Notes under the pieces: model-generated
Database searches by the model: none
What the model was told of the DNA's origin: nothing
The model's input: only the letters and a program-made list of their open reading frames with translations
Made by a program: the position numbers and the translations under genes
Shown here: positions 1 through 34,980 of the stretch, one piece after another
Layout of the letters: every line of letters begins with the position of its first letter
Position numbering within the stretch: position 1 is the stretch's first letter
Sequence record: MT711528.1
DNA from: Escherichia phage vB_EcoS_fTaEco03
Reading direction: 5' to 3' (one strand)
Length of the DNA stretch: 41,972 bases

Positions 1-1251
1 ATGAGTATTCAGCTATCCGCACCGCAGGCACTGTTCCTGAATTGCGGTAACAAATACAAAGCCTATGTCGGCGGCTTCGGCAGCGGAAAGACATTTGTTG
101 GCTGCCTTGACCTGCTTACGTTTATGCTCAAGCATCCAGGTACGCGCCTGGGTTACTTCGGCCCGACATACCCGGCTATCCGTGACATCTTCTACCCAAC
201 ATTTGAGGAAGCCGCTAACCTGCTCGGCCTCGATGTGCTGGTTAAATCTGGCGACAAAGAAGTCGTGGTTACTCGCGGTAAGACGGTGCTCGGTACAGTT
301 ATCTGCCGTTCTATGGATAACCCAGGCTCGATAGTCGGCTTCAAAATCGCTGCTGCGGTCGTGGATGAGCTTGATGTATTGAGCCGTGAGAAAGCTGAGC
401 TGGCGTGGAACAAAATAGTCGCCCGTATGCGTCTGGTTATCCCCGGCGTAACTAACCACATCTCTGTCACCACGACACCGGAAGGGTTCAAGTTCGTCTA
501 CGCCAAGTTCAAAGAGAACCCGACGCCGAGTTACTCGATGGTGCAGGCTTCTACACACGAGAACGCGCGATTCCTGCCACCTGACTACATTAGTTCGCTG
601 ACCGAGACTTATCCGGCGCAGTTGATTAACGCGTATCTGAATGGTGAGTTCGTCAACCTTACCTCCGGCAGCGTGTATTACGCATATGACCGCCGTAAGC
701 ACCGCAGCAAAGAGGTAATTCAACCGGGCGACACGTTGTACATCGGGCAGGACTTCAACGTTACGAAGAACGCCAGCGCCGTGTATGTGCAACGTAAAGA
801 CGGCTGGCACGCGGTGGCAGAACTGAAAGGTCTGTTTGATACGCCGGACACCGTGCGTGTAATTACTGAGAAGTGGAAGTCGCAGGGCCACCGCATAGTC
901 GTTTACCCGGACGCCAGCGGCAAGAACCGCAAGACCAACTCGGCGTCAATCTCAGATATTGCGTTACTCCAGCAGGCCGGTTTCGATGTTCGCGCTAAAT
1001 CCGCCAACCCTCCGGTTAAAGACCGTGTTTTAGCCGTGAATACCGCACTGGAAAAAGGTAAGCTGTGGGTTAATGACCACTTATGCCCCGAGATAGCGAA
1101 GACGCTGGAGCAGCAGGCATACGATGATAACGGAGAGCCAGCTAAAGACGGCATCATTGACCATATGGCGGATGCTCTCGGCTATCCTGTAGTTTACGAG
1201 ATGCCGGTGGTTAAACCAGTAATCAACATCCCGGTGACTTTCGCACTTTAA
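1..1251 (+). CDS. terL: Terminase large subunit
   Basis: Complete 416 aa ORF starting at position 1; Walker A P-loop VGGFGSGKT near N-terminus; immediately followed by portal-sized ORF. Confidence 0.85.
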   Translation: MSIQLSAPQALFLNCGNKYKAYVGGFGSGKTFVGCLDLLTFMLKHPGTRLGYFGPTYPAIRDIFYPTFEEAANLLGLDVLVKSGDKEVVVTRGKTVLGTVICRSMDNPGSIVGFKIAAAVVDELDVLSREKAELAWNKIVARMRLVIPGVTNHISVTTTPEGFKFVYAKFKENPTPSYSMVQASTHENARFLPPDYISSLTETYPAQLINAYLNGEFVNLTSGSVYYAYDRRKHRSKEVIQPGDTLYIGQDFNVTKNASAVYVQRKDGWHAVAELKGLFDTPDTVRVITEKWKSQGHRIVVYPDASGKNRKTNSASISDIALLQQAGFDVRAKSANPPVKDRVLAVNTALEKGKLWVNDHLCPEIAKTLEQQAYDDNGEPAKDGIIDHMADALGYPVVYEMPVVKPVINIPVTFAL

Positions 1252-1262
1252 GAGGACAACAA

Positions 1263-2756
1263 ATGGTTTCCGCAAACATTAACGCAGGGCAAGGGCAGAA
1301 CGTTAAAACCCGCCACCGCCAGTACGAAGAGTATTTCCCTAAGTGGCAGAAGGTGCGACATGCGCTTTCTGGCGACCTGACATCGTATCTACGTGACGTC
1401 AGTAAGAACGAGCCGGACCCGGTTTACGGTCGCCAGCGTCAGGCTGAATACGAAGCGGGGGCAATTTGCTACAACTTCACCAAGCGAACGCTTTCAGGCA
1501 TGGTCGGCAGCGTAATGCGCAAAGACCCAGAGATGATTATTCCGTCTCAGATGGAATACCTGACCACTAACTGTGACGGGTCGGGCGTTGGCCTGTGGCA
1601 GCACGCACAGGATACTCTGTATGAGATTGATGCTGTTGGTCGCGGTGGCTTGCTGGTTGACGCCCCCGCGGTAGAAGTAGCTACCATGGCAGAGCAAAAC
1701 GAGGGTTTACTAAACCCAACAATCGCTTTCTACACCGCAGAGAATATCATCAACTGGCGTCTCCAGCGCGTCGGGTCTGTTAATCGTGTGGTTATGGTTG
1801 TATTGCGTGAGGAATACGAGTACACCGATGGTGCGGATGAGTTCAGCCCCAACTACGGCGAGCAATACCGAGTCCTTGATATTTTCGAAGGCCAGTATCG
1901 CCAGCGTCTGTACCGCTTTAACCAGAAAGGTGCACTGATGGAAGGTGGCTATATCGAAATATTCCCGAAACTCGGTAATATTCCGGTCGGGGTGATTCCG
2001 TTCACGTTCATCGGCGCGGGAAATAACGACTCAACCCCTGACGATGCACCTTTGCTGCCGTTGGCTGAACTTAATATCGGGCACTTCCGCAACAGCGCGG
2101 ACAATGAGGAGTCCAGCTTCGTCGTAGGCCAGCCTACTCTGTTCATCGCCCCCGGTGAGAACATGAGCATGGGACAATGGAAAGAAGCCAACCCTCACGG
2201 AGTGCGTATGGGGTCACGTTCTGGCCATAACATCGGTTACGGCGGCAATGCGTTTCTGGTCCAGGCCAGTGAGAACAACCTAGCCAAGCAGAACATGTTG
2301 GATAAAGAGAACCAGGCAATCCAGATTGGTGCACAGCTTATTACCCCGACGCAGCAAATCACCGCGGAATCGGCACGCCTGCAACGCGGCGCTGATACGT
2401 CCGTTATGGCAACAATCGCACGTAACGTAAGCATGGCGTATACCGATGCGTTGCGCTGGGTCGCGGGTATGCTTGGGATTAGCGACAGCACTGAAATTGA
2501 GTTCAAACTGAACATGGAGTTCTTCCTGCAACCAATGACCGCTCAGGACCGCGCGCAGTGGATGGCGGATATTAACGCGGGCCTGTTACCGGCTACCGCT
2601 TACTATGCTGCGTTGCGTAAGGCGGGGGTAACTGACTGGACAGACGAGGACATTCAGAACGCTATCGAGGATGCGCCTCTGCCATTAGGTGCGGTTGCTC
2701 AGGTGGCTGGGGAGATTCCGCAGTCGGCGCAGCAAAAAGACCCCACCCAGCAGTAA
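1263..2756 (+). CDS. Portal protein (putative)
   Basis: 497 aa ORF directly downstream of terL, size and position typical of portal; followed by terminator hairpin 2767-2787. Confidence 0.7.
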   Translation: MVSANINAGQGQNVKTRHRQYEEYFPKWQKVRHALSGDLTSYLRDVSKNEPDPVYGRQRQAEYEAGAICYNFTKRTLSGMVGSVMRKDPEMIIPSQMEYLTTNCDGSGVGLWQHAQDTLYEIDAVGRGGLLVDAPAVEVATMAEQNEGLLNPTIAFYTAENIINWRLQRVGSVNRVVMVVLREEYEYTDGADEFSPNYGEQYRVLDIFEGQYRQRLYRFNQKGALMEGGYIEIFPKLGNIPVGVIPFTFIGAGNNDSTPDDAPLLPLAELNIGHFRNSADNEESSFVVGQPTLFIAPGENMSMGQWKEANPHGVRMGSRSGHNIGYGGNAFLVQASENNLAKQNMLDKENQAIQIGAQLITPTQQITAESARLQRGADTSVMATIARNVSMAYTDALRWVAGMLGISDSTEIEFKLNMEFFLQPMTAQDRAQWMADINAGLLPATAYYAALRKAGVTDWTDEDIQNAIEDAPLPLGAVAQVAGEIPQSAQQKDPTQQ

Positions 2757-2792
2757 GTTCACATATAGCCCCGAAAGGGGCTTTCTTATAGT

Positions 2793-3869
2793 ATGCTATT
2801 AACTTTAGCGCCACGGGGTTTATCTATGAGCTTACTTACATCACTAATCAGCCACCAGATATGGCTGCAACGCACCGCATCCGGTGAGGTGAAAGACCTC
2901 GCGCCGTTCATTAAGGAGATGCGGGACGAAATCAAACGGCAGGTGCTGCTATTCGGCAACGACGGTCGCAGCACTGCGCGACTGAATAAACTGTTACGTG
3001 ACCTTGAAGAAGCACTGACAGGACTTACTGGTGACTGGCAAACAAAGCTGGCAGAAGACCTCAAGGAACTGGCGGTGTATGAAGCTGAGTGGAACGTAAA
3101 GACCCTGTCCGCCAACGTAGATGCGGAATTTGTTACGCCCACCGCCGAACAGGTGTGGGCCGCTGCTGAGTTTCAGCCATTATCATTGAGTGGCAAGCCA
3201 GTTGATTTCACTAAACTGATGTCAGGTTGGGGTGAAACGGAAGTAGCACGTCTTGTAACCGGCGTTAAGATGGGCTTTGTACAAGGTCAAACAACACGGC
3301 AGATTGTTAAGAATGTAGTAGGCGCCGGTGGGCTGGCTGACATCTCTGAGCGTAACGCCGCTACCGTCATCCGCACCGCGCTGTCTCACGTGTCCAACGA
3401 AGCCCGTAACGAGACGTACCGCCAGAACGACGACATCATCGAGAAGTACGAGTGGGTGTCAACGCTTGACAGCCGCACCAGTACGATTTGCAGGGTCAGA
3501 GACGGGATGACGTGGGAAATTGGTAAGGGGCCGATGCCCCCCGCCCATCCGAACTGCCGGTCGTGCACGGCTCCGGTAATCAGTTCCGAGTTCGACTTCC
3601 TCGATAAAGGCGCAAAACGCGCGGCTAAAGGCGCGGAAGGTGGCACTCAGGTAAGCGTAGACACCACTTACTACGAGTTCCTTAAACAACAACCGGCGTG
3701 GTTTCAGGACCAGGCGCTCGGCCCGGTGCGAGGTAAGATTTTCCGTAACAGCGGTATATCGCCGGAAGAGTTTCGCGTAATATCTGTAGATGGTTTCGGG
3801 AATCCGCTCACGCTTAAGCAGATGGCGGAACTCGATAAACGTGTTGCTGATTATCTGAAAGGGGAATAA
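2793..3869 (+). CDS. Head morphogenesis / minor head protein (putative)
   Basis: 358 aa ORF after portal, the conserved position of SPP1 gp7 / Mu F-like head morphogenesis proteins; start may be ATG 2826 instead. Confidence 0.5.
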   Translation: MLLTLAPRGLSMSLLTSLISHQIWLQRTASGEVKDLAPFIKEMRDEIKRQVLLFGNDGRSTARLNKLLRDLEEALTGLTGDWQTKLAEDLKELAVYEAEWNVKTLSANVDAEFVTPTAEQVWAAAEFQPLSLSGKPVDFTKLMSGWGETEVARLVTGVKMGFVQGQTTRQIVKNVVGAGGLADISERNAATVIRTALSHVSNEARNETYRQNDDIIEKYEWVSTLDSRTSTICRVRDGMTWEIGKGPMPPAHPNCRSCTAPVISSEFDFLDKGAKRAAKGAEGGTQVSVDTTYYEFLKQQPAWFQDQALGPVRGKIFRNSGISPEEFRVISVDGFGNPLTLKQMAELDKRVADYLKGE

Positions 3870-4330
3870 TGATGGGCTTTTTCAAAGTAACTGACGTACC
3901 GTCTCGTCGCGTAGTCCAGTACGCCCGCGTGTCTGGCTCTGGCGAGAACGTGGTGTTTATTGAAGACGAAAGTGTACTCGGAACACCAGTGGACGATATG
4001 CCGTTTGCGGACAAGACCGGTATTGCGCTGCCAGCGGCAGGTATGCTTTATGAGATTCAGTACCTGGCGGATGCTGGTGATGTGTATTTCTCCGTACAAC
4101 CGCAGGACGCTGAACTGGCAGACGGCAGCGCAAATATCGCTGTCGAAGTTAAGGCGGGCAAAGCACCATATGCGCTGACCTGGTACAAAGACGGGAAGGA
4201 AGTGGTAAACGCCCCGGAAGAGGCTCTGTCTCTGACGGTTAACGCAGTTGGTGAATACTTCGTTAAAGTCACTGATGCCGACGGTATAGAGGCCGTAAGT
4301 AAGGCAGCGAAGGTTACTAAGCCAGAATAA
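3869..4330 (+). CDS. Hypothetical structural protein, possible Ig-like C-terminal domain
   Basis: 153 aa ORF whose ATG overlaps previous stop (TAATGATG); followed by strong terminator 4335-4356. Confidence 0.45.
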   Translation: MMGFFKVTDVPSRRVVQYARVSGSGENVVFIEDESVLGTPVDDMPFADKTGIALPAAGMLYEIQYLADAGDVYFSVQPQDAELADGSANIAVEVKAGKAPYALTWYKDGKEVVNAPEEALSLTVNAVGEYFVKVTDADGIEAVSKAAKVTKPE

Positions 4331-4334
4331 ACTG

Positions 4335-4356
4335 AAGCCCCGAAAGGGGCTTTTTA
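4335..4356 (+). terminator. Rho-independent terminator
   Basis: aagccccGAAAggggctt stem-loop followed by TTT. Confidence 0.7.
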
Positions 4357-4366
4357 GTGCCTGTGA

Positions 4367-4406
4367 TTATTCCAGTTATTCCACTCAATTGTAAATGTTG
4401 GAATAA
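4367..4406. promoter_or_regulatory. TTATTCCA repeat array (two direct copies 4367-4374, 4376-4383 plus inverted TGGAATAA 4399-4406)
   Basis: Read directly; a second TGGAATAA copy lies at 5182-5189 upstream of another TTGACA; candidate regulator binding sites. Confidence 0.4.
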
Positions 4407-4421
4407 ACTATTCGAATAGTT
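4406..4421. promoter_or_regulatory. Perfect 16-bp palindrome AACTATTCGAATAGTT abutting -35
   Basis: Self-complementary 16-mer read directly; overlaps first base of TTGACT. Confidence 0.5.
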
Positions 4422-4448
4422 GACTTTTCACCAAAAATGTGCTAAGCT
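4420..4448 (+). promoter_or_regulatory. Sigma70-like promoter (TTGACT - 17 bp - TGcTAAGCT extended -10)
   Basis: -35 TTGACT 4420-4425, -10 TAAGCT 4443-4448 with upstream TG; homologous copy at 34949-34977. Confidence 0.55.
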
Positions 4449-4451
4449 CCA

Positions 4452-4489
4452 CCTGAGCTTGTGAAGTATGAACAAGCGACCGCGGCGCG
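4452..4489 (+). promoter_or_regulatory. Conserved 38-nt promoter-proximal leader element, copy 1
   Basis: CCTGAGCTTGTGAAGTATGAACAAGCGACCGCGGCGCG identical to 34981-35018; contains hairpin GCTTGT-N9-ACAAGC. Confidence 0.6.
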
Positions 4490-4626
4490 GGCAGGTAACG
4501 GAGCGGGACGTAAGTCCTGAGTGTAGTTACGCTGACGCGTTCGGAAGGGCCATACTCTATTGCTTGTGTAAAAAGTAACTGGTTTACTGAGATTACGCCG
4601 TTTCTATGTTTAAATGATAAGGACTA

Positions 4627-4655
4627 GCGCCCCGCTTTAAGGCGGGGCTTTACTT
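4627..4655 (+). terminator. Terminator-like hairpin inside leader, upstream of spanin genes
   Basis: gccccgcTTTAAGgcggggc then TTTACTT; lies between promoter/leader and first CDS. Confidence 0.5.
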
Positions 4656-4672
4656 ATCGAGAAAGGGGAAAC

Positions 4673-5059
4673 ATGAATCTTAAAGCAACTGTCGTAGCGG
4701 GAGCATGTTTCATCATCCTGGCTTACGCACACGGCATCTACCAGTATCGCAGCGGCTGGAACGGAGGCCGGGCGAATCTCGTTTCGCAGCAACAGCAGAA
4801 AGCACATGCTGAGTTAGCTAAGAAAACACAACGGCAGCAGCAGGATGAATCGAAGGCCGCCGCCGCTGATAACGAAGGCAAGACGAAATCAGAGGTAATC
4901 ACCCGTGAAGTCGTTAAGTACATTAAAACGCCTGGCCGCAGCGTGTGCACTTTTGACCCTGAGCGCGTGCAGCTCAAGTCCCGCGCCGTCGCAAACGCCA
5001 ATTCCATCCCCGGATACGACGATGATGCAGCCGCCGTGCAAACTGGCACTGCCAAGTAA
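4673..5059 (+). CDS. i-spanin (Rz-like), putative
   Basis: 128 aa; N-terminal TM segment VVAGACFIILAYAHGIY, Q/K/E-rich coiled-coil-like middle; contains overlapping lipoprotein ORF in +1 frame. Confidence 0.55.
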   Translation: MNLKATVVAGACFIILAYAHGIYQYRSGWNGGRANLVSQQQQKAHAELAKKTQRQQQDESKAAAADNEGKTKSEVITREVVKYIKTPGRSVCTFDPERVQLKSRAVANANSIPGYDDDAAAVQTGTAK

Positions 5060-5168: not shown

Positions 5169-5247
5169 TTGCCTTGTATGTTGGAATAATTTATTCTTGA
5201 CATGTAAATCCGGGTGGCCCGGATTCCAACGTCCAGGGGACATACTG

Positions 5248-5880: not shown

Positions 5881-6849
5881 ATGGCTCTGTCAGATATGAA
5901 GGTTTATAACGACGATATCGTCGGTACCACTATCGAACTGCTTGGTCAGAAAACTGACCAGTTTAACGCGGCCTCCGGTGGTGCAATTGTACTGTCTACT
6001 GCCTCATGGCGCGGTGATTTCTCCCGTGAGTCTTTCTTTAACCAGATTGCCTCCGCTAAACGCCGCGTTGACCGTTACGCCGCTATCGCGTCTCAGGCAG
6101 CTACCGCGCTGACTCAGGGCGAGCATGTAGGCGTTAAAGTCGCTGGCGGCTTCGGACCGGTACTGTTCGAGCCTGCGCAAATGACCTGGCTGAACGAAGA
6201 CCCGGCGAGCGCGATTCGTGCTATTTCCGAAGGCTTCTCTGACGCACTGTTAGCTGACCAGCTTAACACCGCTGTTGGTGCCGCCGTTGCCGCGGTATCA
6301 GGTCAGACTGCACTGGTTAACGATGTATCCGCGACCGCTGGCTTGTCCCTGAACGTGCTGAACAACAGCCACGCTAAATTCGGCGACCAGTCTCAGTTGT
6401 TGGTCACTGACATCATGACCGGTGCTGCTTATCACACGCTGGTAGATAAAGCGCTGACCAACGCAAACCAGTTGTTCGTTGCTGGCAACGTTATGGTTGT
6501 CGATGTTCTCGGCAAGCGTTACGTAATCTCTGACATTCCTGCGCTGTACGAGGCCGGTACTCCGAACAAGACTAAGGTTCTGTCCGTAGTTGCGAACGGC
6601 ATCATCGTTGATAATGCTTCTGACATTATCAGCAACATTGACACCAGCAACGGTAACACCCGCATCCAGACCACCTGGCAGGCGGACTACAGCTTCGGCC
6701 TGAAACTGAAAGGCTACAGCTGGGACGTTACCAACGGCGGTAAATCTCCGCTGGACGCAGAACTGTTCACCGCGACTAACTGGGACAAAGCTGTTGCCGA
6801 GAACAAGCACACCCTCGGTACTCTGGCAATCGCCGACGCAGACCTGTAA
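5881..6849 (+). CDS. Major capsid protein (putative)
   Basis: 322 aa ORF after scaffold-like gene, followed by strong terminator 6866-6890; position typical for major capsid. Confidence 0.6.
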   Translation: MALSDMKVYNDDIVGTTIELLGQKTDQFNAASGGAIVLSTASWRGDFSRESFFNQIASAKRRVDRYAAIASQAATALTQGEHVGVKVAGGFGPVLFEPAQMTWLNEDPASAIRAISEGFSDALLADQLNTAVGAAVAAVSGQTALVNDVSATAGLSLNVLNNSHAKFGDQSQLLVTDIMTGAAYHTLVDKALTNANQLFVAGNVMVVDVLGKRYVISDIPALYEAGTPNKTKVLSVVANGIIVDNASDIISNIDTSNGNTRIQTTWQADYSFGLKLKGYSWDVTNGGKSPLDAELFTATNWDKAVAENKHTLGTLAIADADL

Positions 6850-6865: not shown

Positions 6866-6890
6866 AACAAAGGGGCTTCGGCCCCTTTTT
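6866..6890 (+). terminator. Rho-independent terminator after capsid gene
   Basis: aaaggggcTTCGgccccttt + TT; typical capsid-gene attenuator. Confidence 0.7.
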
Positions 6891-10639: not shown

Positions 10640-10663
10640 AAGGCCCCGTTTGGGGCCTTTTTC
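10640..10663. terminator. Bidirectional terminator between converging genes
   Basis: aggccccGTTTggggcct with T-run on plus and A-run upstream (T-run on minus). Confidence 0.7.
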
Positions 10664-13074: not shown

Positions 13075-13089
13075 TGTTGGTGTAAGTGA

Positions 13090-13118
13090 ATAGTACCCTA
13101 TTATATTGGGGTGTGCAA
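13090..13118 (-). promoter_or_regulatory. Promoter family member (TTGCAC - 17 - TACTAT) with AATAG-N4-CTATT inverted repeat
   Basis: Minus strand reads CTTGCACACCCCAATATAATAGGGTACTATTCAC, near-identical to 35245-35278 on plus strand. Confidence 0.5.
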
Positions 13119-13226
13119 GTAATGTGATAGAATAAGTTTGCGCCTAGTGTCGCACACGAAAAGCGGGTGGTTCCCGTCTGGCGCATTTATCGTTAACCTG
13201 TAACCTCTTAACCAAAGGATTAAAGA

Positions 13227-13643: not shown

Positions 13644-14008
13644 ACGCGCTGTACAGGTTCGCCACCTATGAGTTTGTGGATAAGCATAAAATCAGAGAGT
13701 TTGATTCTATAGCCGACGGACACGAACAGGCGCTTATCGCGATGGGTGTAATCGATAAGAAAAAACGTGCAGCGCGACGGGGTGGGCCAGAATGCCCGCC
13801 CCTTTTTATATCCACCTTCGAGACGTACTGCGACATTAAGTTTACGCGACACGTGCGCGAGGACGCTGTAGTATTGTTCGCAAGAGAATCCGTTACGTGG
13901 CAAGACCTGAAAGCCTATCTCGATGTTACGCAAAAACAGCTTAGCCTGTTCGAGATAGACATTATCATGGGCTTAGAAGCAATCTTTGAAGGTAGAAATC
14001 ATGGCTGA
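13619..14008 (+). CDS. Tail assembly chaperone frameshift extension (gpGT-like C-terminal part)
   Basis: Open -1 frame overlapping end of 13227-13643 and running to tape measure start; no good independent start. Confidence 0.45.
   Translation, partial: AQSITGKVDALYRFATYEFVDKHKIREFDSIADGHEQALIAMGVIDKKKRAARRGGPECPPLFISTFETYCDIKFTRHVREDAVVLFARESVTWQDLKAYLDVTQKQLSLFEIDIIMGLEAIFEGRNHG
13634..13640 (+). other. Putative -1 programmed ribosomal frameshift site (GGAAAAG)
   Basis: A AAG lysine codon just before TAG; the -1 frame is open from 13619 to 14008. Confidence 0.45.
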
Positions 14009-23189: not shown

Positions 23190-23327
23190 CTACTCTTCTG
23201 ATAACTTCTCCAGTACAAACGCCAGTTGCGCATTAGCGGCGTCTCTTTGCTGCCGTAGTCGTAGAACCTCCTCCTCAAGTTCCTTGATACGTTTTTGCAA
23301 TGCCGGAATCGGGGCTATGATGTTCAT
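23190..23327 (-). CDS. Small coiled-coil protein (45 aa), hypothetical
   Basis: ATGA overlap with helicase stop; GAGGT RBS; leucine-heptad-like sequence IKELEEEVLRLRQQ. Confidence 0.35.
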   Translation of the reverse strand: MNIIAPIPALQKRIKELEEEVLRLRQQRDAANAQLAFVLEKLSEE

Positions 23328-24748
23328 TTCTTACCTCGTCTCTTCATGTAATTAAGCAACTCTTCCTGGACCGATTTCTTCTCGTCAGTACGCGAGGCAA
23401 CAACCTCGTCCAGCGTGTCTTTAGCAACGATGTGATAGAGGAACACTGGTCGCTCGTGGCCCGCCTGCTTCTGGCGCACCGGGCCTATACGCTCGACAAC
23501 CTGCAAATAGTGCTCAAGGTTCCAGCCTTGCGAAATAAACGCCAGATGATGTCCGCCGTCCTGTAAATTCAAGCCATGGCCGGCTGACGCGGGGTGCACG
23601 CATAGGATTTCGATTTCGCCACGGTTCCACGCTTCCATCTGCTTATTACCTTTCGCACCTTTGGCAAACGCCTGCGCCTGTGGGAATCGCTTAAGGATGC
23701 GCTCCAGTTCGTGCTTGAACTGATAAGCCACAAGTAACGGTGCGCCCTGTAGCTCCTCAACAATCGACTCAAGCGCGTCCAGTTTCGTATCGTGTACTTT
23801 CTCCCAGTCTTTGGTTGCCTCACCGTCTGGCCCCGACACATATACGGCACCGGAGGCAATCTGCAAACACTTTGACGTCTTCGCCGCCGCGTTAGCCGCT
23901 TCAACTTCTCCGCTCTCCAGTTCCGCGAATAACTTCTCCTCCATATCTAGGTACGCCTGACGTGCCTTCTTCGGCAGGTCGATTTCAACCGGCACTATAA
24001 TAGGTGCTTCACACCCAAACCACTCAGCGGCGTCAATAGTGAGACTAATGTCCTTCATCTTCTGGTGGATCTCATTATCTGCACCAGGACGCGCATGATA
24101 CTCCCGCGCCATCGCCGACTTACCTTTCTGTACCGAGTTAAACCATCGGTCGGTGAATGCCGTATATGAGGACCCCAGGCGCTCGCCGGCGTCGATAAAC
24201 CAGTTCTGACCCCACAGGTCCTTGAGGCCGTTTGGTGAGGGCGTGCCGGTAAGGTTTATAAAACGCTTAACCTTTCCAAACGCCACCTTACTGAGCGCCT
24301 TTGCCCGCTTGCTACCACCTGAACGGCTGCGGAATGATTTCAGCTTCGTGCTTTCGTCGGCGACGATAACGGTAAAAGGCCAGTCGTCTTTGCCGTAGTA
24401 GTCAATCAGCCATTCGATAACTTCGTAGTTTGTACACACCACGTTAGCGTCTGATTCCAGCGCCGCGATGCGGCGCTTCTCTGAACCTGTCGCGTCTACG
24501 ACACGCAGACATGGGAAATTCCATTTCTCTTGCTCTGCCGGCCATGTGCCGGACGCAACACGTAAAGGAGCCAGAATTAACACGCGGTCGTCGTCCGTAA
24601 GTTGCCCGTTGCGGAACAGGCGGTTTAAAGTCCACAGGACGCTGCCAGTCTTCCCGGCGCCCATGCTCGCCCAAATATTACAGCGATGGTGCTGCAACAT
24701 GAACGAGGTCATGAGCTTCTGGTATTCGCGCCTTTGAAACTTACTCAT
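23324..24748 (-). CDS. SNF2/DEAD-like superfamily II helicase
   Basis: 474 aa; Walker A GAGKTGS, DExx box VIVADEST, motif III-like LTGTP. Confidence 0.75.
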   Translation of the reverse strand: MSKFQRREYQKLMTSFMLQHHRCNIWASMGAGKTGSVLWTLNRLFRNGQLTDDDRVLILAPLRVASGTWPAEQEKWNFPCLRVVDATGSEKRRIAALESDANVVCTNYEVIEWLIDYYGKDDWPFTVIVADESTKLKSFRSRSGGSKRAKALSKVAFGKVKRFINLTGTPSPNGLKDLWGQNWFIDAGERLGSSYTAFTDRWFNSVQKGKSAMAREYHARPGADNEIHQKMKDISLTIDAAEWFGCEAPIIVPVEIDLPKKARQAYLDMEEKLFAELESGEVEAANAAAKTSKCLQIASGAVYVSGPDGEATKDWEKVHDTKLDALESIVEELQGAPLLVAYQFKHELERILKRFPQAQAFAKGAKGNKQMEAWNRGEIEILCVHPASAGHGLNLQDGGHHLAFISQGWNLEHYLQVVERIGPVRQKQAGHERPVFLYHIVAKDTLDEVVASRTDEKKSVQEELLNYMKRRGKK

Positions 24749-25535
24749 TTACGGCCCCCATAAACGCCTTTATAAATTCGGCGGCTACTTGCGGGACGAT
24801 GGCATTGCCGTAACCGCGCAATCGTCCCACTCTGGCGGGTACCCCATTAGCCAGCGGGAATGTGCTGGGTTCAACTGGCCTGAATTTCCCATCCCGGCAT
24901 CCGAGCCAGTCAGCATCTGACCAGAACCCGTTAGGCGGATTGGCTGTGCCAGAGATGCCTCTGTTTGCAGATTGTGGCCCCCGTTCCTGCCCTGATGGCC
25001 TGCTCCCGCCGAGTTGTTCGCACACGGTGTTGGCCAGTTGCTGCGCTCCGAAGAACAATCGATTCCTTTTGTGCGGTGCGCCGACGCTACAAGCTGGGAG
25101 TACGGCAAACCCGACGGCGTAGTCTTCTCTTTCCAGGTGAGTTTGTAAATCGCACATCCACGATTTTGCAATTGCTGCCGCAACCTGCTCCCCAAAGATA
25201 ACTGGAGGGCGGCACTCGCTGATGAGGTCGAGGAACACAGGTGCGAGGTGTCTCTGGTCGAACTGTCCGAGTTGCTTTCCTGCCGTGCTAAACGGTTGGC
25301 AAGGCGGGCTTCCCGTCCAGAGAGGCGCATCTTCCGGAACTCCCGAAAGTCTGAGCGCGAGAGGCCAGCCGCCGATACCAGCGAAAAAATGACACTGGGT
25401 GAACCCGTCAAGGTCTTCTGGTCTAACTTCGGTAATGCTTCTTTCATCTACAACTCCAAAAGGTATGTGACCCTGTTTTATTAATTCACGCAGCCACGCG
25501 GCTGCGCCTTTATCCCATTCGTTGTAATAGTTCAT
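24741..25535 (-). CDS. DNA (cytosine-5) methyltransferase, short form
   Basis: 264 aa; motif I FAGIGG, motif IV PPCQPFS, motif VIII KRNRLFF, motif X GNAIVP. Confidence 0.7.
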
Positions 25536-25723
25536 TTCGCCACCAGAACCAGTTCCTTACGCCCGAACGCCGTAACGTTTCCTGTTACATCTTCGATAAC
25601 CAGTTTACCGTTCGACTCGACGAACACCGTATCAACGGCAACAGGGTGGCGGGTCTTAACGTTGAAAATCATATCGCCAGGTACGATGTCACGTGCTGGT
25701 TTACGGTCATATTCGTGTTTCAT
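25532..25723 (-). CDS. Hypothetical protein (63 aa)
   Basis: First ORF downstream of minus-strand promoter 25757-25785; ATGA overlap with methyltransferase. Confidence 0.45.
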   Translation of the reverse strand: MKHEYDRKPARDIVPGDMIFNVKTRHPVAVDTVFVESNGKLVIEDVTGNVTAFGRKELVLVAK

Positions 25724-25753
25724 TTCTCAATTCCTTATATTGTTGGTGTGTGA

Positions 25754-26038
25754 TTAACTATAATAGCTCGCTATTAGGTCGTCAACCTGTTTAAACGAAC
25801 CAACGATAAAAACATTTGCACCGCGTTTACGCATCCGCTCGTGCTCACGTATCTGGTGCGGGTCTGGCTTCGTGTTTTCGTCTTTCTTAACCTCGACGAA
25901 CCATATGACGCCGCCAGGGAGAATTACCAGCAGGTCGGGAGCGCCGGAGCGCCCCTCGTAGGAGAGCTTACGAACGAGGCCGCCGATGGCCTCGAATCGC
26001 TCTTTTGCGTATTTCTGTATTTTGCCTTCCGGTGTCAT
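25754..26038 (-). CDS. VRR-NUC-like PD-(D/E)xK nuclease
   Basis: ~94 aa from ATG 26038 (track began at TTG 26053); motif PDLLVILPGG...VEVKK. Confidence 0.5.
   Translation of the reverse strand: MTPEGKIQKYAKERFEAIGGLVRKLSYEGRSGAPDLLVILPGGVIWFVEVKKDENTKPDPHQIREHERMRKRGANVFIVGSFKQVDDLIASYYS
25757..25785 (-). promoter_or_regulatory. Promoter family member (TTGACG - 17 - TATAGT) with AATAG-N4-CTATT inverted repeat
   Basis: Minus strand reads TTGACGACCTAATAGCGAGCTATTATAGT. Confidence 0.55.
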
Positions 26039-26187
26039 GAGCGCGGAATCCAAGTAAGGAAAGCCCCGCCTAGAACGGCAACGCCAACAAACTTAAAGAA
26101 CAGGCCGTAACAGAACATCGCGGCTATTCCCGCACCGAGTAACAGCGCGAGCATGGTTACTATCGTCCAAAATACAAACATTGTCAT
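26035..26187 (-). CDS. Small hydrophobic membrane protein (50 aa)
   Basis: GAGGGG RBS; hydrophobic throughout; stop overlaps next ATG (ATGA); below ORF-track size cutoff. Confidence 0.3.
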   Translation of the reverse strand: MTMFVFWTIVTMLALLLGAGIAAMFCYGLFFKFVGVAVLGGAFLTWIPRS

Positions 26188-26269
26188 AATACGCACCCCT
26201 CACGTTTCGTATGTTCAATACCACAGCGCGGGCAGATTCGACAGTCTTCTTCATAAAACCAGTAAATTT

Positions 26270-26401
26270 TCATTCCAGCACCCACAGATAAATTGCGATG
26301 AACATGCCCAATATGGCAACCATCATGCCGTATTGACCCTCGTGACAGTAGACACCGGCAGCAAATCCCGCCAGTACCGCGATAATCAGTTTACTTGGCA
26401 T
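26270..26401 (-). CDS. Small hydrophobic membrane protein (43 aa)
   Basis: ATG 8 nt beyond the DNA polymerase stop in another frame; hydrophobic throughout. Confidence 0.3.
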   Translation of the reverse strand: MPSKLIIAVLAGFAAGVYCHEGQYGMMVAILGMFIAIYLWVLE

Positions 26402-28571
26402 AACGCTTCATCTCCGCGCCTTCTGCTACAAGAGGGAACCCCTCGGCCCACTCTGGTAATTCGCACATCAATCGTTCCAGTTCTGCGACATTGTATTCTG
26501 GTAAATCTGGTGTCTCGCAGATAATCTCATCGTGAACATGAAGCACAATCGGGTAGCCGTTTGCTTCGACGTTCAGCAGTGCATTAGCCAACAAATCACG
26601 GCACAGCGCCTGAGTGCAGTTTTCCACCAGTTTACCAGAGTAGGTGTACTGGAAGCCCCACTGACGGGTTAACTGGTTTTCGCCCTGGTACTTGATGCGC
26701 ACGTTGGTAGACACCTTCCCGTCTTCGTCTGTCTCTTTCGACACGCTTAACCCGACGCCAGGGTATGACATAACTCGACCAGACGGCAACGTCATACGCA
26801 ACCACCAACCGGCGACTTTGTTGCCGTTGTTGTCCGTTTCTACGTTGCGCGAAAACTTAACTCCCCGCGGCCCTGCGGTGAACTCTTTGCCCGGATTGCG
26901 GATAGCTGCCATAGCCGCGTCTTCAATATCCCGCCAGAAAGCTACTGTTTCCGGGTGTGACTCACGCCACATACGCTTGATAGCGTCGCAGGTACGCCAC
27001 ACTTTCTTATCAAGAATATAAGATGGTCGGTCATCATTTTCACCTGGACGTGGTGGTCGCTTGGCTTCCTGAATACGCGCCCACTCATATCCACGTGCGG
27101 TAGCAGCCCAGATGTGGTCGGGGAAAGTCCCGTCCATTGTTTTTGCCATATCAACAAGGTCAAGGCCGAGGTTCTTGGCGAACTGTACGAATGCGCCGAC
27201 ACCACCCGCGTAGCCAAGTCCAAGTTCGCATGCCTTACCAATCTGGCGTAAGTCTTTACGTTCTTTCTTAATGTAATCCGGCTCCATGCCGAACATCTTG
27301 CCTGCGGTTACGCAGTAAATATCCAGCCCGGCACGGAACGTATCAAGCGCGGTTTCTTCGCCAGCCAGCCACGCCAAACCGCGGCCTTCAACGTTCGAGT
27401 AGTCGGCGACGACAAACTTATACCCGGCTTCCGGGATAATGCAGCTGCGAACCGTAGATGCCGTTAGCTTGGCTACATCAAAACGGCGATGTGCTCGGCC
27501 CTTAAGTAATGCTGAAATACCTTTATCCAGTTCATCATCGTGATAGTACCCACGCGCCAGGTTCTGCGGCTGGAAGCCTTTACCCGCAAATCGTAACGTA
27601 CGTTTAGCTCCACCATACTGGATGCAACCGCGACGGCGGTCGTCAGACGAGCGGCCTAACAGCAGCGGGTTATATTTCGTTGACGCAGTGGATGCCGCCC
27701 CGAGGCGCATTTCTATAATCGTGCGGGCGTCGTCCGGTAAATCATCGTCAGCAAGCAGGTCGTTAAGCGTAGACTTCTGCGCGTTGTGGATGCGATGCGC
27801 AGGCGCCAGTTCACGCAGAATCGGCAGGAAGTCCTTACCTGTAAGCGAGCCGCCGTATTTACGTTGGGCTTCTTCCTGTAACTGTGCCTTGTGTTTCTCC
27901 ACAGCTTCAATTGCGGCTTCCGCCAGCGCAACGTCGACCTTAAACCCGCGGTCGTTAATTAACTGGTCCAGTTCCAGTACACGGTCTTCGAACTCGGAGT
28001 TACCCCAACGCGGCAACTTATGGAACACTTCACGCATCGCGGTGATGTCGCTAACGGCGTACTTGATGAACAGCGCCCACTCATCCGGGTGCGTTTCAGC
28101 AGTGTAGCGGCGAATTTTGTAGTTCTTCGGCGTCGGTTTAGAGAAACGCTGAATAAGCGCTTTGCCTCGTTTGTCTTTCGCGTTGTCTGCAGACACGCCA
28201 AGCACTTCGCACAATGCGTCGAGTGAACCCGGCAGCGCGTGACGAAACGCCCAAATCATCGTATCAATGGTGTTGCTTACGGGAATATCAAAACCCCAGC
28301 AGTGCTTCATGATGAGTCTGTCGAACATTGAGCCGTTGTGCCACACCATCTTAATACGGCTGTTTGGTTTCACCAGACGGCGTAACGCGCGGTGCAAATC
28401 ACCCGGCATGTCGCTGCCGTTGGTGCAATCCCATACCTGCACAGGCTCGTCGTCAAAAGCATATGTGCAGATTAGAACTTCGGTGGTTGGATGTTCGGCG
28501 TAAGCGTAGGAGCCGACTTTCTTCAAATCGGCTTCTGAGAATGTTTCAAAGTCTAAGAACAGGTAACTCAT
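26391..28571 (-). CDS. DNA polymerase I (family A) with 3'-5' exonuclease domain
   Basis: 726 aa; Exo I-like LFLDFETFS; pol motif A VVADYSNVEGR, motif B-like K...GLGYAGG, motif C VHDE. Confidence 0.85.
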   Translation of the reverse strand: MSYLFLDFETFSEADLKKVGSYAYAEHPTTEVLICTYAFDDEPVQVWDCTNGSDMPGDLHRALRRLVKPNSRIKMVWHNGSMFDRLIMKHCWGFDIPVSNTIDTMIWAFRHALPGSLDALCEVLGVSADNAKDKRGKALIQRFSKPTPKNYKIRRYTAETHPDEWALFIKYAVSDITAMREVFHKLPRWGNSEFEDRVLELDQLINDRGFKVDVALAEAAIEAVEKHKAQLQEEAQRKYGGSLTGKDFLPILRELAPAHRIHNAQKSTLNDLLADDDLPDDARTIIEMRLGAASTASTKYNPLLLGRSSDDRRRGCIQYGGAKRTLRFAGKGFQPQNLARGYYHDDELDKGISALLKGRAHRRFDVAKLTASTVRSCIIPEAGYKFVVADYSNVEGRGLAWLAGEETALDTFRAGLDIYCVTAGKMFGMEPDYIKKERKDLRQIGKACELGLGYAGGVGAFVQFAKNLGLDLVDMAKTMDGTFPDHIWAATARGYEWARIQEAKRPPRPGENDDRPSYILDKKVWRTCDAIKRMWRESHPETVAFWRDIEDAAMAAIRNPGKEFTAGPRGVKFSRNVETDNNGNKVAGWWLRMTLPSGRVMSYPGVGLSVSKETDEDGKVSTNVRIKYQGENQLTRQWGFQYTYSGKLVENCTQALCRDLLANALLNVEANGYPIVLHVHDEIICETPDLPEYNVAELERLMCELPEWAEGFPLVAEGAEMKRYAK

Positions 28572-28587
28572 TATTTTTGACCCTTAG

Positions 28588-28611
28588 TAAAAAGGCCCAA
28601 TGAAGGGCCTT
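28588..28611 (-). terminator. Intra-operon terminator/attenuator between SSB-like gene and DNA polymerase
   Basis: Minus strand AAGGCCC-TTCATT-GGGCCTT followed by TTTTTACT. Confidence 0.45.
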
Positions 28612-28630
28612 AGTTAAATTGATTCAGATA

Positions 28631-29257
28631 TTAGCGACGACGACGCTCGCGGCGCGGTGATTCATCTTCTTCGTCGTCTTCCAGGTCATTTACGCTGGCA
28701 GCGACTTTAGAACCGCCAAACGCTTTGCCTTCGCCAATGTATTTAATCGCCAGCAGGTTAACGCCGAGGACTTTATATTTCTGACTGAACCAGATTTCAA
28801 CGCTTACGTTAGCGACGCAGCCGCTGTAAACCTGTTCACCTTCAATCTGTTCGCCGTCTACATTGAAGTCCTGTTCTACCTGAGTCTCGCCTTTTTTAGA
28901 GGTTACAATCAGTGGCTGTTTCTGTGCCTTCGCCTTGAAGTAGAAGCCTTCCGGGAAGTCTTCAAACGGATTGTCGCGCTCGGCAATGTCTTTAATCGCA
29001 CATTTATCCATGTGCTTACCTTCGCCGTAGTTGGACTTCATCCACTTCTCAGCGGCAGCTGCGCCCAACGCTTCTTCAACCACAGCGTAAACGGTGTCGT
29101 AGAGCGCGTCGATTTGTGCGTGGTCAGACGGCAGGATGATAGTCGCGCTGTACTGGCCTTTAGTGATTGAGCCATCATCGTTTTCACGGTCTTTTTCGCG
29201 TTCGAATACGTTAACCCATGCAGTGTTTACTTTACGCAGATTCAGTTTAATACCCAT
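28631..29257 (-). CDS. Single-strand DNA-binding / annealing protein (putative)
   Basis: 208 aa with acidic C-terminal tail DDEEDE then RRERRRR; located beside nuclease and polymerase. Confidence 0.45.
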   Translation of the reverse strand: MGIKLNLRKVNTAWVNVFEREKDRENDDGSITKGQYSATIILPSDHAQIDALYDTVYAVVEEALGAAAAEKWMKSNYGEGKHMDKCAIKDIAERDNPFEDFPEGFYFKAKAQKQPLIVTSKKGETQVEQDFNVDGEQIEGEQVYSGCVANVSVEIWFSQKYKVLGVNLLAIKYIGEGKAFGGSKVAASVNDLEDDEEDESPRRERRRR

Positions 29258-29310
29258 CGTGATTTCTCGCTTTTCAGTTTACTCCGGGAACTGCCCGGCC
29301 AGTGATTAGA

Positions 29311-29339
29311 ACTATAATAGCTAACTATTCGGGTGTCAA
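29311..29339 (-). promoter_or_regulatory. Promoter family member (TTGACA - 17 - TATAGT) with AATAG-N4-CTATT inverted repeat
   Basis: Minus strand reads TTGACACCCGAATAGTTAGCTATTATAGT. Confidence 0.55.
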
Positions 29340-29343
29340 CACT

Positions 29344-30597
29344 TTATTCCAAATCTTCTTCACTAACCTGATTCCACTCAGGACGTTTGTCGTCTGCCGT
29401 TGCGACACATGGTGCGCCTGGCTTACGGGTAATAAACGGCTCAAGCGCTGCCATCTCATCCGCCGAAAGAACTTTTGCTGCCTCCGTAGGGGTCATCAAT
29501 ACCTCTTTTTTGAGAATGTCGCCGTGTGACACTTCAATCGCATCGGCATCTTTCCACGCACGGTTGCCCATCTTACCTTCAACCAGCTTGTACCCAGGAA
29601 CTTTCTTACCGGAATGCAATGCGGCGGTCATCGCTTTCTCAACCTTGTCGATGTGCTGGCGTAACAGCGGCAACTTCTCATACTCAACTACGAGTTGCTC
29701 CGTCGTCAGTTCCAGCACAAAGTCGTCTTCAAGTTCTTCCGCCAGTACAGAATTAACCGTCTTTGTACGCGCGGCACACTGTTCAGAGAACCGGCACCAC
29801 TGGCAACCATCGACCGACGGTTTAAAGTCCGACGCTTTCAGGTTCTTCTTTCCACGGAAATAAGCATCAAGCGCTAACAGTGCCCGTTTCTGTGCGAACT
29901 TAGCGAACAGTTCCAGACCTTCGACCGAGATGTCCCACTCTGACGCACCCCCCGCGTACGGCTGGAAGATGACCAGGCGCACTACTGTGATGTTATAACG
30001 TCTCTTGAGTCGGCGATAAACACCGAGAGCGTAAAGCATAAGCTGCTTGTTTTCTTTCGCTTCAACACGATGCCGTCCAGTTTTAAGGTCGCCAATAATG
30101 AGCATGTGCTCGTCGGTGTTCGCCAGTTCCTGGACAGCAACGAGGTCAGCCGTTCCGAACGTCTCGACACCTTCATACCCAGGATGCAATACCTCAGTAA
30201 GATTGACTCGCATTTCCAGCTTGGCGTAAGTCGCTACGTCGATAATCGCTTTGCAGTAGTCGGTGTACTTGCGCACCTGCTCAATCATGTCCGCCGTAAT
30301 CAGTACCGCGCCTTTCATTGGGCTGATTAGCGCCTTAATCTGACCTTTACCTTCATCCAGCACGTAAGCGCCGACTTCACGCTCTAACGGCAGCGCAGCA
30401 CCTTTGATGTACTGGTTAAGATGCATCTCGGCTATGGTGTGCATAGCTGTGCCTAATACCGCGGCTTTACCGGACGTGTTAGGAATATCTTTTTCACAGG
30501 CCAGAGAAGCCGGGCAGGTTAGCCACTTTTTAGCGCCTGACGGTGATAGTAAGGCGTGTACATCGTTATTGCCGCCGCGCTCTTTTAGAATCATCAT
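29344..30597 (-). CDS. Cas4/RecB-like PD-(D/E)xK exonuclease with Fe-S cysteine cluster
   Basis: 417 aa; nuclease motifs GDLKTGR and QLMLYA; one N-terminal Cys and C-terminal CQWCRFSEQC. Confidence 0.65.
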   Translation of the reverse strand: MMILKERGGNNDVHALLSPSGAKKWLTCPASLACEKDIPNTSGKAAVLGTAMHTIAEMHLNQYIKGAALPLEREVGAYVLDEGKGQIKALISPMKGAVLITADMIEQVRKYTDYCKAIIDVATYAKLEMRVNLTEVLHPGYEGVETFGTADLVAVQELANTDEHMLIIGDLKTGRHRVEAKENKQLMLYALGVYRRLKRRYNITVVRLVIFQPYAGGASEWDISVEGLELFAKFAQKRALLALDAYFRGKKNLKASDFKPSVDGCQWCRFSEQCAARTKTVNSVLAEELEDDFVLELTTEQLVVEYEKLPLLRQHIDKVEKAMTAALHSGKKVPGYKLVEGKMGNRAWKDADAIEVSHGDILKKEVLMTPTEAAKVLSADEMAALEPFITRKPGAPCVATADDKRPEWNQVSEEDLE

Positions 30598-30866
30598 TTA
30601 GTGCCCTCCGGCAGTTCCGGTAAATACATCCAGTGAGTTATGCCCATCTCGATATACCGTTTCGTATATAGCTGATTTCCGTTCTCATCCAGCCCAGCCG
30701 TAATGTCGTCGAAATAGTCCTGTATATGTACAAAATCGATCCCACCTTCCGGGAACCCGTTATCGTCATATTTACCACCATCTACTGAGCAAACTAAAAC
30801 AGAATCATCTTTTGACTCCGGCAATGCTTCGTTTACACTAACCCAATTCATACCCTGCTCTCCCAC
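30594..30866 (-). CDS. DUF551-like protein
   Basis: 90 aa ending ITHWMYLPELP, resembling C-terminal signature also present in 36024-36224. Confidence 0.45.
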   Translation of the reverse strand: MGEQGMNWVSVNEALPESKDDSVLVCSVDGGKYDDNGFPEGGIDFVHIQDYFDDITAGLDENGNQLYTKRYIEMGITHWMYLPELPEGTK

Positions 30867-31120
30867 TGGTCAATTAAATGTCGTGTCTTATGGTCGCAGT
30901 GCATAGCCCAGCTGTACATCGACTCAAAGACATAAAAGTCAGGCTTGGCGAATGTCGTGCGCTTAATCTGCGACACGTGACGGCCTATATCTTTAGACAG
31001 CGGTACTTTGCCTAAGTACGCCATCTCTTCCATCTGGTGTGCACCGGACGGCGCACGCAATAACCATAGCGCCTCTGTGGTATCCCGCCGGTCAACGGCG
31101 CGGTATAGTTGGTAAATCAT
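30848..31120 (-). CDS. Hypothetical protein (90 aa)
   Basis: ORF in early minus-strand operon; no recognisable motif. Confidence 0.4.
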   Translation of the reverse strand: MIYQLYRAVDRRDTTEALWLLRAPSGAHQMEEMAYLGKVPLSKDIGRHVSQIKRTTFAKPDFYVFESMYSWAMHCDHKTRHLIDQWESRV

Positions 31121-31163
31121 AATCCCGACCCTCAGTTAAAGCGGCCCGAAGGCCGCGGGATAG

Positions 31164-31634: not shown

Positions 31635-31665
31635 TTGTTTCTCTCCTCTCGTTTGGTATGGGCTA

Positions 31666-31694
31666 ACTATAATAGCGAACTATTCACTTGTCAA
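31666..31694 (-). promoter_or_regulatory. Promoter family member (TTGACA - 17 - TATAGT) with AATAG-N4-CTATT inverted repeat
   Basis: Minus strand reads TTGACAAGTGAATAGTTCGCTATTATAGT; divergent from HTH regulator gene. Confidence 0.6.
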
Positions 31695-31758
31695 TGGGCT
31701 TTTCTAAAATAATTAATATGGTACTATTCACATATCAACTGACTAAGGAGTAATTGGC

Positions 31759-31974: not shown

Positions 31975-31989
31975 CGCCCCTTTCTTTTT
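31965..31989 (+). terminator. Rho-independent terminator after HTH regulator gene
   Basis: ggggcTTAACgcccc + TTTCTTTTT; stop codon lies in loop. Confidence 0.65.
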
Positions 31990-31991
31990 AC

Positions 31992-34378: not shown

Positions 34379-34428
34379 TGTATAATCCTTGTGCTTACTT
34401 TGATGATTTATGCTTCGGCCCCGACGTT

Positions 34429-34977: not shown

Positions 34978-34980
34978 CAG

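Follow-up and report, generated by a model that had tools for sequence, protein, structure and literature searches.

Twin promoter-proximal leader RNAs of phage vB_EcoS_fTaEco03 represent a covarying RNA family of the Guernseyvirinae with a possible put-like role

The DNA considered here, referred to below as the window, is the whole stretch of 41,972 nucleotides (nt) from Escherichia phage vB_EcoS_fTaEco03 (sequence record MT711528.1), and the element under study is a promoter with its leader that occurs twice in it: once (copy 1, locus 1) between a Hoc-like gene and the gene for an Rz-like spanin, and once (copy 2, locus 2) between the replication genes and a rightward run of small genes. 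A repeat search of the window pairs 4420-4489 with 34949-35018 at 87% identity over 70 nt; the 35-mer GAGCTTGTGAAGTATGAACAAGCGACCGCGGCGCG is exact at two places only (4455-4489 and 34984-35018), with none expected in 100 shuffles. Local blastn extends the similarity to 4420-4562 against 34949-35092 (79.6% over 147 nt, E 1e-25), in agreement with an initial annotation of this DNA, which had described the promoter and the segment following it as repeated at the second site, with further shared blocks over about 150 nt. Both promoters comprise TTGACT, a 17-nt spacer and the extended -10 sequence TGnTAAGCT. The spacer sequence is unlike between the copies; the -35 hexamer, the TG and TA(A/C)GCT are conserved in every variant of the types designated K, B, C and J. 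The copy 1 promoter is tagged as a predicted host promoter in the annotation of the relative fBC-Eco01, and the position of its -10 hexamer predicts a start at G4455 or A4456. Copy 2 carries an additional C after GGCGCG, the 1-nt indel which, as had been pointed out initially, breaks any reading frame common to the two copies.

What the two copies encode is a structured leader RNA, non-coding and about 114 nt long, whose transcription begins at +1 of an extended -10 sigma-70 promoter. The predicted start should place its first hairpin, H1, at the extreme 5' end of the transcript. The initial annotation had spoken of a 38-nt hairpin segment: a hairpin is indeed present, but it occupies only 21 nt (4457-4477), and the remainder of the segment is the 5' strand of a longer hairpin, stem II, that closes at 4544. 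The junction between the two is GA. From base to tip, stem II is made up of CCG/CGG, a bulged C, GGCGCG/CGCGUU, CAG/CUG, GUAAC/GUUAC, the loop GGAGC//GAGUGUA and the apical hairpin GGGAC-GUAA-GUCCU; its conserved unpaired stretches are GG(C)AG, GGAGC, GAGUGUA and the GUAA tetraloop. The conserved tail that follows is purine-rich and, taken with the preceding CGG, reads CGGAAGGGCC-N6-UAUUG (CGGAAGGGCC..CUAUUG), ending at 4562; no conserved pairing partner was found for 4545-4562. In the A/U-rich 3' half of the leader, RNAalifold found the terminal hairpin alone, and the block (A)UCUAAG..GCCGUA is present in all leader types at both loci. Copy 2 scores 86.1 bits (E 1.7e-20) against the covariance model described below.

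Table 1. Features of the two loci and their surroundings in the window (positions from its first letter)
Feature	Position	Strand	Detail or basis
Terminase, portal, MuF, Hoc-like gene	1-4330		followed by copy 1 of the element
TGGAATAA/TTATTCC repeats	4367-4406		upstream of locus-1 promoter
Copy 1 promoter	4420-4448	+	-35 TTGACT 4420-4425; TGcTAAGCT, -10 4443-4448
H1, 5'-terminal hairpin	4457-4477	+	GCUUGU-GAAGUAUGA-ACAAGC; predicted fold
Stem II, irregular 65-nt hairpin	4480-4544	+	covariance model R1, alignment A3
Single-stranded conserved tail	4545-4562	+	AAGGGCCAUACUCUAUUG; most conserved stretch across K, J and E types
A/U-rich 3' half of leader	4563-4628	+	conserved block CUGAGAUUACGCCGUUUC
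Terminator-like hairpin	4629-4648	+	GCCCCGC-UUUAAG-GCGGGGC; terminator scan; TTTACTTATC (RNA UUUACUUAUC) next
Rz-like spanin gene	4673-5059	+	annotation of near-identical phages
Scaffold, major capsid protein, head-tail/tail genes	after spanin	+	annotation of near-identical phages
Replication genes	23324-34913	-	copy 2 of the element comes next
HTH gene	34659-34853	-	HTH family matches; divergent from copy 2 promoter
Copy 2 promoter	34949-34977	+	-35 34949-34954; TGgTAAGCT, -10 34972-34977
Copy 2 structured RNA	34978-35092	+	H1 34986-35006; stem II 35009-35074; tail 35075-35092; predicted fold
GC hairpin closing copy 2 leader	35163-35179	+	UGGUGCC-UUC-GGCACCA; terminator scan; interrupted U-tract after; varies among relatives
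Second locus-2 promoter	35246-35274	+	TTGCAC-17-TACTAT; between copy 2 leader and first gene (ATG 35309)
Small genes, holins, endolysin	after copy 2	+	rightward run into terminase genes

The case for this structure is carried by covariation. Variants were taken from the spanin-upstream regions of 46 IMG/VR contigs, the HTH-gene-adjacent regions of 32 contigs and other loci, which gave 39 distinct sequences; a covariance model (R1) was built from the structure written down from copy 1, its 68 matches were realigned (alignment A3) and the pairs were counted. In this alignment, which is fitted to R1 and hence leans towards the model, standard pairs occupy 96.3% of cells in the 39 variants, against 31-43% when the 3' partners are slid by one to three columns; the margin is very large, and the compensatory changes, found in 12 of the 28 pairs, can be seen in the raw sequences. 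A covariation score of 0.28 was obtained, compared with at most 0.05 for the slid controls, and none of 500 shuffles scored as high. H1 pairs in 100% of cells, and relatives carry counterparts of it in the same place (GCUUGUG/CGCAAGC, ACGCU/AGCGU, UUCGU/ACGAA). The lower-helix pair 42-107 is CG in 22 variants, UA in 14 and AU in three; the middle helix appears as GUAAC/GUUAC, GGAAC/GUUCC or GAAAC/GUGUC; and all four apical pairs take three or four pair types while pairing in every cell, the apical hairpin being GGGAC/GUCCU, CGGAC/GUCCG, GGUGC/GCACU, CACGUG/CGUGUG, GUGCC/GGCAC or GGGCGU/ACGCCC. The helices covary, whereas loops and tail are constant in sequence. Conservation at 34 K-type loci is 98.3% for the 114-nt element and 98.1% for the remaining leader, against 91.7% for the adjacent spanin DNA, and at four of these loci the spanin DNA falls to 73-82% with leaders still 97-100% identical. 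The RNA fold is under strong purifying selection, since compensatory base-pair changes imply selection on RNA pairing and not on DNA sequence. The covariation analysis that the initial annotation had proposed for the two copies and their relatives thus gave a clear answer, and of its claim of conservation at the RNA or DNA level the RNA part stands; a DNA-level mechanism of the qut/Q kind fails to explain the compensatory changes.

The element also occurs in the related phages to which the initial annotation had looked for it. The K type lies upstream of the spanin gene in 180 Kagunavirus-type records. The J type occupies the same place in 269 Jerseyvirus records, with R1 scores of 58-62 bits, an H1 of ACGCU-UUC-AGCGU, a stem II containing CGCG/CGCG and GGGCGU-CACA-ACGCCC, and the frame ACCGCGG..CGCAUUCGGAAGGGCC. 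The E type is found at the syntenic site of phiEap-2, an unclassified member of the Guernseyvirinae, where R1 gives that genome's best match (16.8 bits, E 0.013); it retains a 5-bp 5' hairpin, the long stem CGUAAC/GUUACG, the GUAA loop and CGGAAGGGCC, its sequence being otherwise largely different. In all lineages the RNA begins about 2 nt or less from the predicted start. The family is found throughout the Guernseyvirinae, in about 450 genomes, ahead of lysis and capsid genes. Rfam 15 yielded no family at gathering score over the whole window, and matches admitted up to E 10 were at chance level, below 17 bits. The element was not found in 5,426 complete E. coli genomes; in loose GC-rich pattern scans none of 120 bacterial-genome loci among the matches listed was real after nhmmer filtering; and a spanin profile search returned the same 48 loci as a single-protein search, none of them more distant. 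Full-text literature searches gave no description of the leader RNA family, and a Kagunavirus RNA-seq paper that reports gene classes does not mention the leaders (PMC12645636). The family is real and has strong support, and it is apparently undescribed.

Several other readings of the same nucleotides were considered and set aside. The minimum free energy fold of copy 1 suggests a pseudoknot between AGUAUG in the H1 loop and CAUACU in the tail; the tail varies (CAUAGU, CAAAGU, CGUACU) without compensation in the loop, and the pairing is not present in the C, J and E types. A riboswitch-like alternative pairing of stem II with the 4629-4648 hairpin, prompted by the similarity of GCGGGGC and GCGCGGGC, is lost in the J type. 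A 38-codon open reading frame (ORF) whose ATG falls in the loop and 3' arm of H1 is no better as a protein gene: the indel shifts its frame between the copies, and types C (GATATCGC), J and E all lack its ATG. Several GenBank records nevertheless annotate a 38-codon hypothetical protein within the structured RNA (fBC-Eco01_09, 6200-6316, and equivalents); from the sequence comparison this is almost certainly a false gene call. A tRNA-like reading also fails, as the 'tRNA-Ser' of two Jerseyvirus records is on the opposite strand and upstream of the element, and ARAGORN found no tRNA in the window. That tRNA-Ser(UGA), called by ARAGORN and in a RefSeq record, is on the minus strand of some Jerseyviruses (L163, 1154-1232; L432, 526-603), where the end of the Hoc-like gene and that gene's terminator overlap with it; its distance upstream of the element is about 70 nt, and other Jerseyvirus loci have no such call. 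The boxA-like CUCUAUUG, the ops-like GAGUGUAG, a CsrA-type series of GGA motifs, and an SD-like GGAAGGG with a UUG mini-ORF were examined by eye, and are too poorly conserved for any claim.

The overall layout of promoter, some 200 nt of leader, GC hairpin, then lysis and structural genes is as had been described initially, with the hairpin at 4629-4648 and the spanin gene from 4673. The hairpin ends 15 nt ahead of the spanin ribosome-binding site, and it too has compensatory variants (GCCCUGC/GCAGGGC, GCCCGGC/GCCGGGC, GCCCGAC/GUCGGGC). It had been called terminator-like. The hairpin exists, covaries and is under selection; the sequences after it, UUUACUUAUC (K type), UUAGCGUAU (J type) and UGUUACG (E type), amount to a weak U-tract in Kagunavirus and to none in Jerseyvirus and phiEap-2. 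To judge from these sequences it may be a weak terminator in Kagunavirus, and the conserved feature is, on the same comparison, not a canonical terminator but a hairpin that precedes the spanin ribosome-binding site by 15-25 nt. The hairpin closing the copy 2 leader is directly preceded by a (CACT)n microsatellite at 35148-35162, with three units here and about six in the relative L180. Further downstream, the locus-1 operon contains intrinsic terminators after the capsid gene (AAAGGGGCUUCGGCCCCUUUUUACU, 6869-6888) and after the tail tube gene (10640-10659), and the strongest terminator-like site on the plus strand, GGGGUGGGC..GCCCGCCCC UUUUUAU, lies at 13779-13802 in the gap between tail assembly chaperone and tape measure genes, so that the tail genes beyond it would need read-through. 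The Ent1 annotation lists several more terminators in its operon. A promoter and terminator scan found no strong promoter after the operon-internal terminators of the window, and no other strong promoter at locus 1 ahead of the spanin, scaffold and capsid genes.

A second copy of the element is present in only about 42 of the 180 Kagunavirus-type records, and the Jerseyviruses have one copy. At locus 2 other phages carry instead a type II leader (fBC-Eco01, 37473-37734) or a type III leader (Ent1, 37435-37730, and many IMG/VR contigs), each laid out as a strong sigma-70 promoter, GC-rich hairpins, a closing GC hairpin, the TTGCAC-17-TACTAT promoter and the first gene. These leaders, carried also at the loci L189-L202, are unrelated to the type I element studied here, and R1 finds no match in them. 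Type III contains a long hypervariable hairpin that remains base-paired despite sequence change, and a CCUUCC block in type III is complementary to GGAAGG of the type I tail. The 3' halves have AUCUAAG..GCCGUAG in common in all leader types, and types I and III also share GGGC..CU(C/A)UAUU. Type I variants have been exchanged between the loci, copy 2 of L177 and L179 being nearly identical to copy 1 of L113 and L137. This exchange argues for an equivalent role in cis at both loci. The twin arrangement of the window is accordingly a locus-1 element duplicated or exchanged into a slot that accepts interchangeable leader modules. The use of other structured leaders by phages that lack copy 2 is reminiscent of lambdoid phages, among which nut and put modules are exchanged.

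The genomic setting can be described more briefly. The 301 bases around the element are 98-100% identical to about 180 phage records, among them Escherichia phages K1G, K1H, fKuEco01 and fTaEco01, Kagunavirus isolates and some Salmonella phages, and the annotated relatives fFiEco03 and fBC-Eco01 are classed as Kagunavirus, Guernseyvirinae; judged by these matches the window is a Kagunavirus genome, that of a virulent E. coli phage. No RNA polymerase is annotated in fFiEco03 or fBC-Eco01. The small early ORFs are mostly without known function, and a PHROGs scan of 20 small ORFs, including those tested between 35309 and 41211, found no antiterminator family and nothing N-like or Q-like. Four of the five occurrences of TGGAATAA in the genome fall at 4367-4406 and 5182-5189, flanking the spanin gene, and the TTATTCC/TGGAATAA repeats are conserved upstream of the locus-1 promoter in the K, J (Jerseyvirus) and E (phiEap-2) types; this placement probably marks them as sites where a DNA-binding protein regulates the late promoter. 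The second promoter of locus 2 belongs to a 37-nt motif found at 35245-35281, at 13083-13119 on the minus strand (94.6% identity to the first by blastn) and at 36539-36586, which fronts several gene blocks and matches the PHIRE 'phage promoters' of the fBC-Eco01 annotation. By its sequence it looks like a separate, phage-specific class of promoter or operator, different from the twin promoter.

Three near-consensus sigma-70 promoters, TTGAC[A/G]-17-TATAGT, lie on the minus strand at 25757-25785, 29311-29339 and 31666-31694, spaced along the replication gene block and with conserved flanks. At 41310-41432 the promoter TGTACA-18-TATAAT (41336-41365) comes after a terminator (AAGCCCUC..GAGGGCUUUU) and leads into a 5' hairpin AGACGCG-UAGG-GCGCGUCU ahead of the small terminase gene; it is another promoter with a 5'-hairpin leader. 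The major capsid protein (5881-6849) is a rare module: only about 20 records are at least 90% identical, the next closest are Vibrio phages at 62-64%, and the majority of matches fall below 60%. A rare capsid gene below a standard K type leader indicates, as far as sequence comparison goes, mosaic exchange downstream of the leader. Finally, an exact 299-nt tandem duplication (two copies, 100% identical) at 37866-38463, just upstream of the holin region, could be either a real duplication or an assembly artefact.

What the leader does can be addressed only by argument from these observations. The tentatively favoured reading, to which we would give somewhat less than an even chance, is that the leader RNA acts in cis on elongation or termination within its own operon, working like the put RNAs of phage HK022. 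It is suggested by the position of the element, its twin arrangement, the exchange of modules, the operon-internal terminators and the lack of a recognisable antiterminator protein; that the two copies stand behind two promoters of rightward operons was also counted in its favour. The RNA would fold on emerging from RNA polymerase and protect the elongating complex against termination, be it at the GC hairpin closing the leader or at operon-internal terminators such as 6869-6888 and 10640-10659; host or phage proteins might be bound to its conserved loops; and timing would be set at the promoter via the TTATTCC/GGAATAA repeats upstream of locus 1. The conservation of those repeats suggests timing by a DNA-binding regulator, which would leave a role in processivity for the RNA. 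A number of points weigh against such a put-like action. A put covariance model finds no match here, so that nothing can be transferred by homology. The U-tract of the leader hairpin being weak or absent, there may be no leader terminator to overcome; post-capsid terminators are common attenuators in phages that have no antitermination system; and at locus 2 a separate promoter lies between leader and first gene, so that this leader could form an independent transcription unit. Nor does the reading account for the 3' half, which is as conserved as the folded part. A bolder extension, which we regard as doubtful, is that the leader belongs to a second class of RNA, evolved independently, that needs no help in binding host RNA polymerase and confers resistance to termination in the late operon of virulent siphoviruses, swappable with other leader modules.

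Three rivals of the put-like reading, taken together, are about as likely as it is. It is possible, if unlikely, that the RNA is a protein-binding site, whether a nut-like antitermination site or a site for a phage or host RNA-binding regulator, and that a factor recognising the loops GGCAG, ACGGAGC and GAGUGUAG together with the CGGAAGGGCC tail switches on read-through or translation during infection. Constant loops and tail between covarying helices are typical of protein-recognised RNAs, a promoter-proximal RNA site ahead of a hairpin resembles nutL, and with most small early ORFs lacking a known function an unrecognised partner is conceivable. Yet there is no boxA/boxB-like pair, the H1 loop ranges from 3 to 9 nt, and the PHROGs scan gave no N-like or Q-like partner; moreover the type II and III leaders of locus 2 lack these motifs, so that a single factor could not serve both operons. 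On a rather less probable view the element is a separate gene for a small RNA of some 200 nt, equipped with a promoter and a terminator, and its two paralogues act in trans, any read-through being incidental. The distance of about 175-200 nt from strong promoter to GC hairpin at both loci fits this view, as do the separate promoter of the locus-2 genes and the 98% conservation of the entire 224-nt leader, unstructured 3' half included. Against this, locus 1 would then be left without a strong promoter for the essential spanin, scaffold and capsid genes, in types J and E the terminal hairpin is not followed by the U-tract expected of a good terminator or an Hfq-type end, most relatives have a single copy and replace the second with unrelated leaders, and no target complementarity was identified.

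No more probable than a free small RNA is an element for processing or stability, in which H1 would shield the transcript from 5'-end-dependent decay, stem II would be cleaved, and the hairpin beside the ribosome-binding site would stabilise the mRNA or tune its translation. In its length of about 22 bp and its internal loops, stem II resembles phage RNase III substrates such as the T7 and lambda sites; H1 stands about 2 nt from the 5' end in each lineage; and types K, J and E all retain the hairpin just ahead of the ribosome-binding site, with or without a U-tract. The loops and tail are, however, conserved more strictly than stability elements usually need, and the 3' half held in common with the otherwise unrelated type II and III leaders would go unexplained. 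Very improbable, finally, is a Q/qut-like mechanism, in which a DNA element and a sigma-dependent promoter-proximal pause load a phage antiterminator and the transcript of about 200 nt is a by-product like lambda 6S RNA. The layout does match lambda PR'-6S-tR' upstream of lysis and structural genes, and K-type copies have a -10-like AAGTAT at +10 to +15. The likeness to lambda qut that had been proposed is not supported: AAGTAT is confined to K and B variants, those of types C, J and E having lost it; the promoter spacer, where Q would be expected to bind, differs between the copies; no Q family protein was found among the 20 small ORFs; and this mechanism is disfavoured above all because it does not predict the RNA covariation, the compensatory changes being a mark of selection on RNA pairing.

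Among E. coli and Salmonella phages, few are isolated for therapy as often as the Guernseyvirinae, which encode no RNA polymerase, sigma factor or recognised antiterminator. A strongly selected fold at the 5' end of their spanin/scaffold/capsid transcript, in about 450 genomes, is a concrete and easily testable candidate for a control element of late operons. Were put-like action confirmed, this would be only the second phage RNA family of its kind and a compact part for synthetic antitermination; were it an independent class binding RNA polymerase, control of the put type would be a general phage strategy, no longer peculiar to HK022. Even as a free small RNA or a processing site, the leader would amount to an undescribed, well-supported RNA family that belongs in Rfam. 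In any event the analysis corrects a recurrent false call of a 'hypothetical protein' in deposited genomes.

Several known systems invite comparison. Structured leader RNAs for which read-through of several terminators has been proposed or shown include the Bacillus EAR element, conAn2 of pLS20 and the leader of Tn916 (PMC8191782, PMC11658703); these resemble the present element in being structured leaders, but their hosts and sequences are unrelated and there is no Rfam match here. Lambda PR'-qut-6S RNA-tR' offers a similar constitutive-looking promoter, transcript of about 200 nt and hairpin upstream of lysis and structural genes; there, however, DNA elements act with the Q protein and the RNA fold is unselected, whereas here the fold covaries and a Q is unrecognised. 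The N/nut system of lambda likewise places a promoter-proximal RNA element once per early operon, with a small hairpin beside a conserved single-stranded block. Unlike nut, the leader has no boxA consensus (CGCUCUUA), CUCUAUUG recalling GCUCUUUA only loosely, and H1 is not a boxB-like 15-mer with a GNRA-like pentaloop, its loop being 9, 6 or 3 nt according to lineage; as no N-like family was found in the small ORFs either, the proposed likeness to nut was not sustained. The suggestion of an HK022 put site fared no better as a statement of kinship. The put RNAs are factor-independent antiterminators of lambdoid phages that act in cis, and their suppression of downstream terminators depends on the beta' zinc-binding domain of RNA polymerase. 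A put model (R2) was built from eight sequences, HK022 putL and putR and those of HK639, phiEt88, UPF_BP1, CobraSix, S9-5 and PDP110P2, and it recovers putL at 97.1 bits and putR at 48.8 bits; with default filters it finds no match in the window or in Jerseyvirus Ent1, and with filters off the maximum over 4300-4800 is 3.6 bits. Blastn with putL retrieved 21 records only, none of them from Guernseyvirinae, and R1 in turn has no match in HK022. The leader RNA is longer than put, with about 90 nt of structure against about 70 and a conserved 3' tail in addition; it is carried by virulent Guernseyvirinae and not by temperate lambdoid or P22-like phages; and most relatives of the window phage have a single copy, put-like function being proposed by analogy. 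The likenesses are of arrangement. HK022 putL lies directly after its promoter (PMC9378689), as does the present element, and both RNAs consist of two hairpins in enterobacterial phages that use host RNA polymerase (PMC9378689). In the window, as in HK022, each of two promoters is followed by one of two diverged copies, with hairpins or terminators and a long operon further on. The element is not a member of the put family: the comparison would be that it works like a put, and not that it is one.

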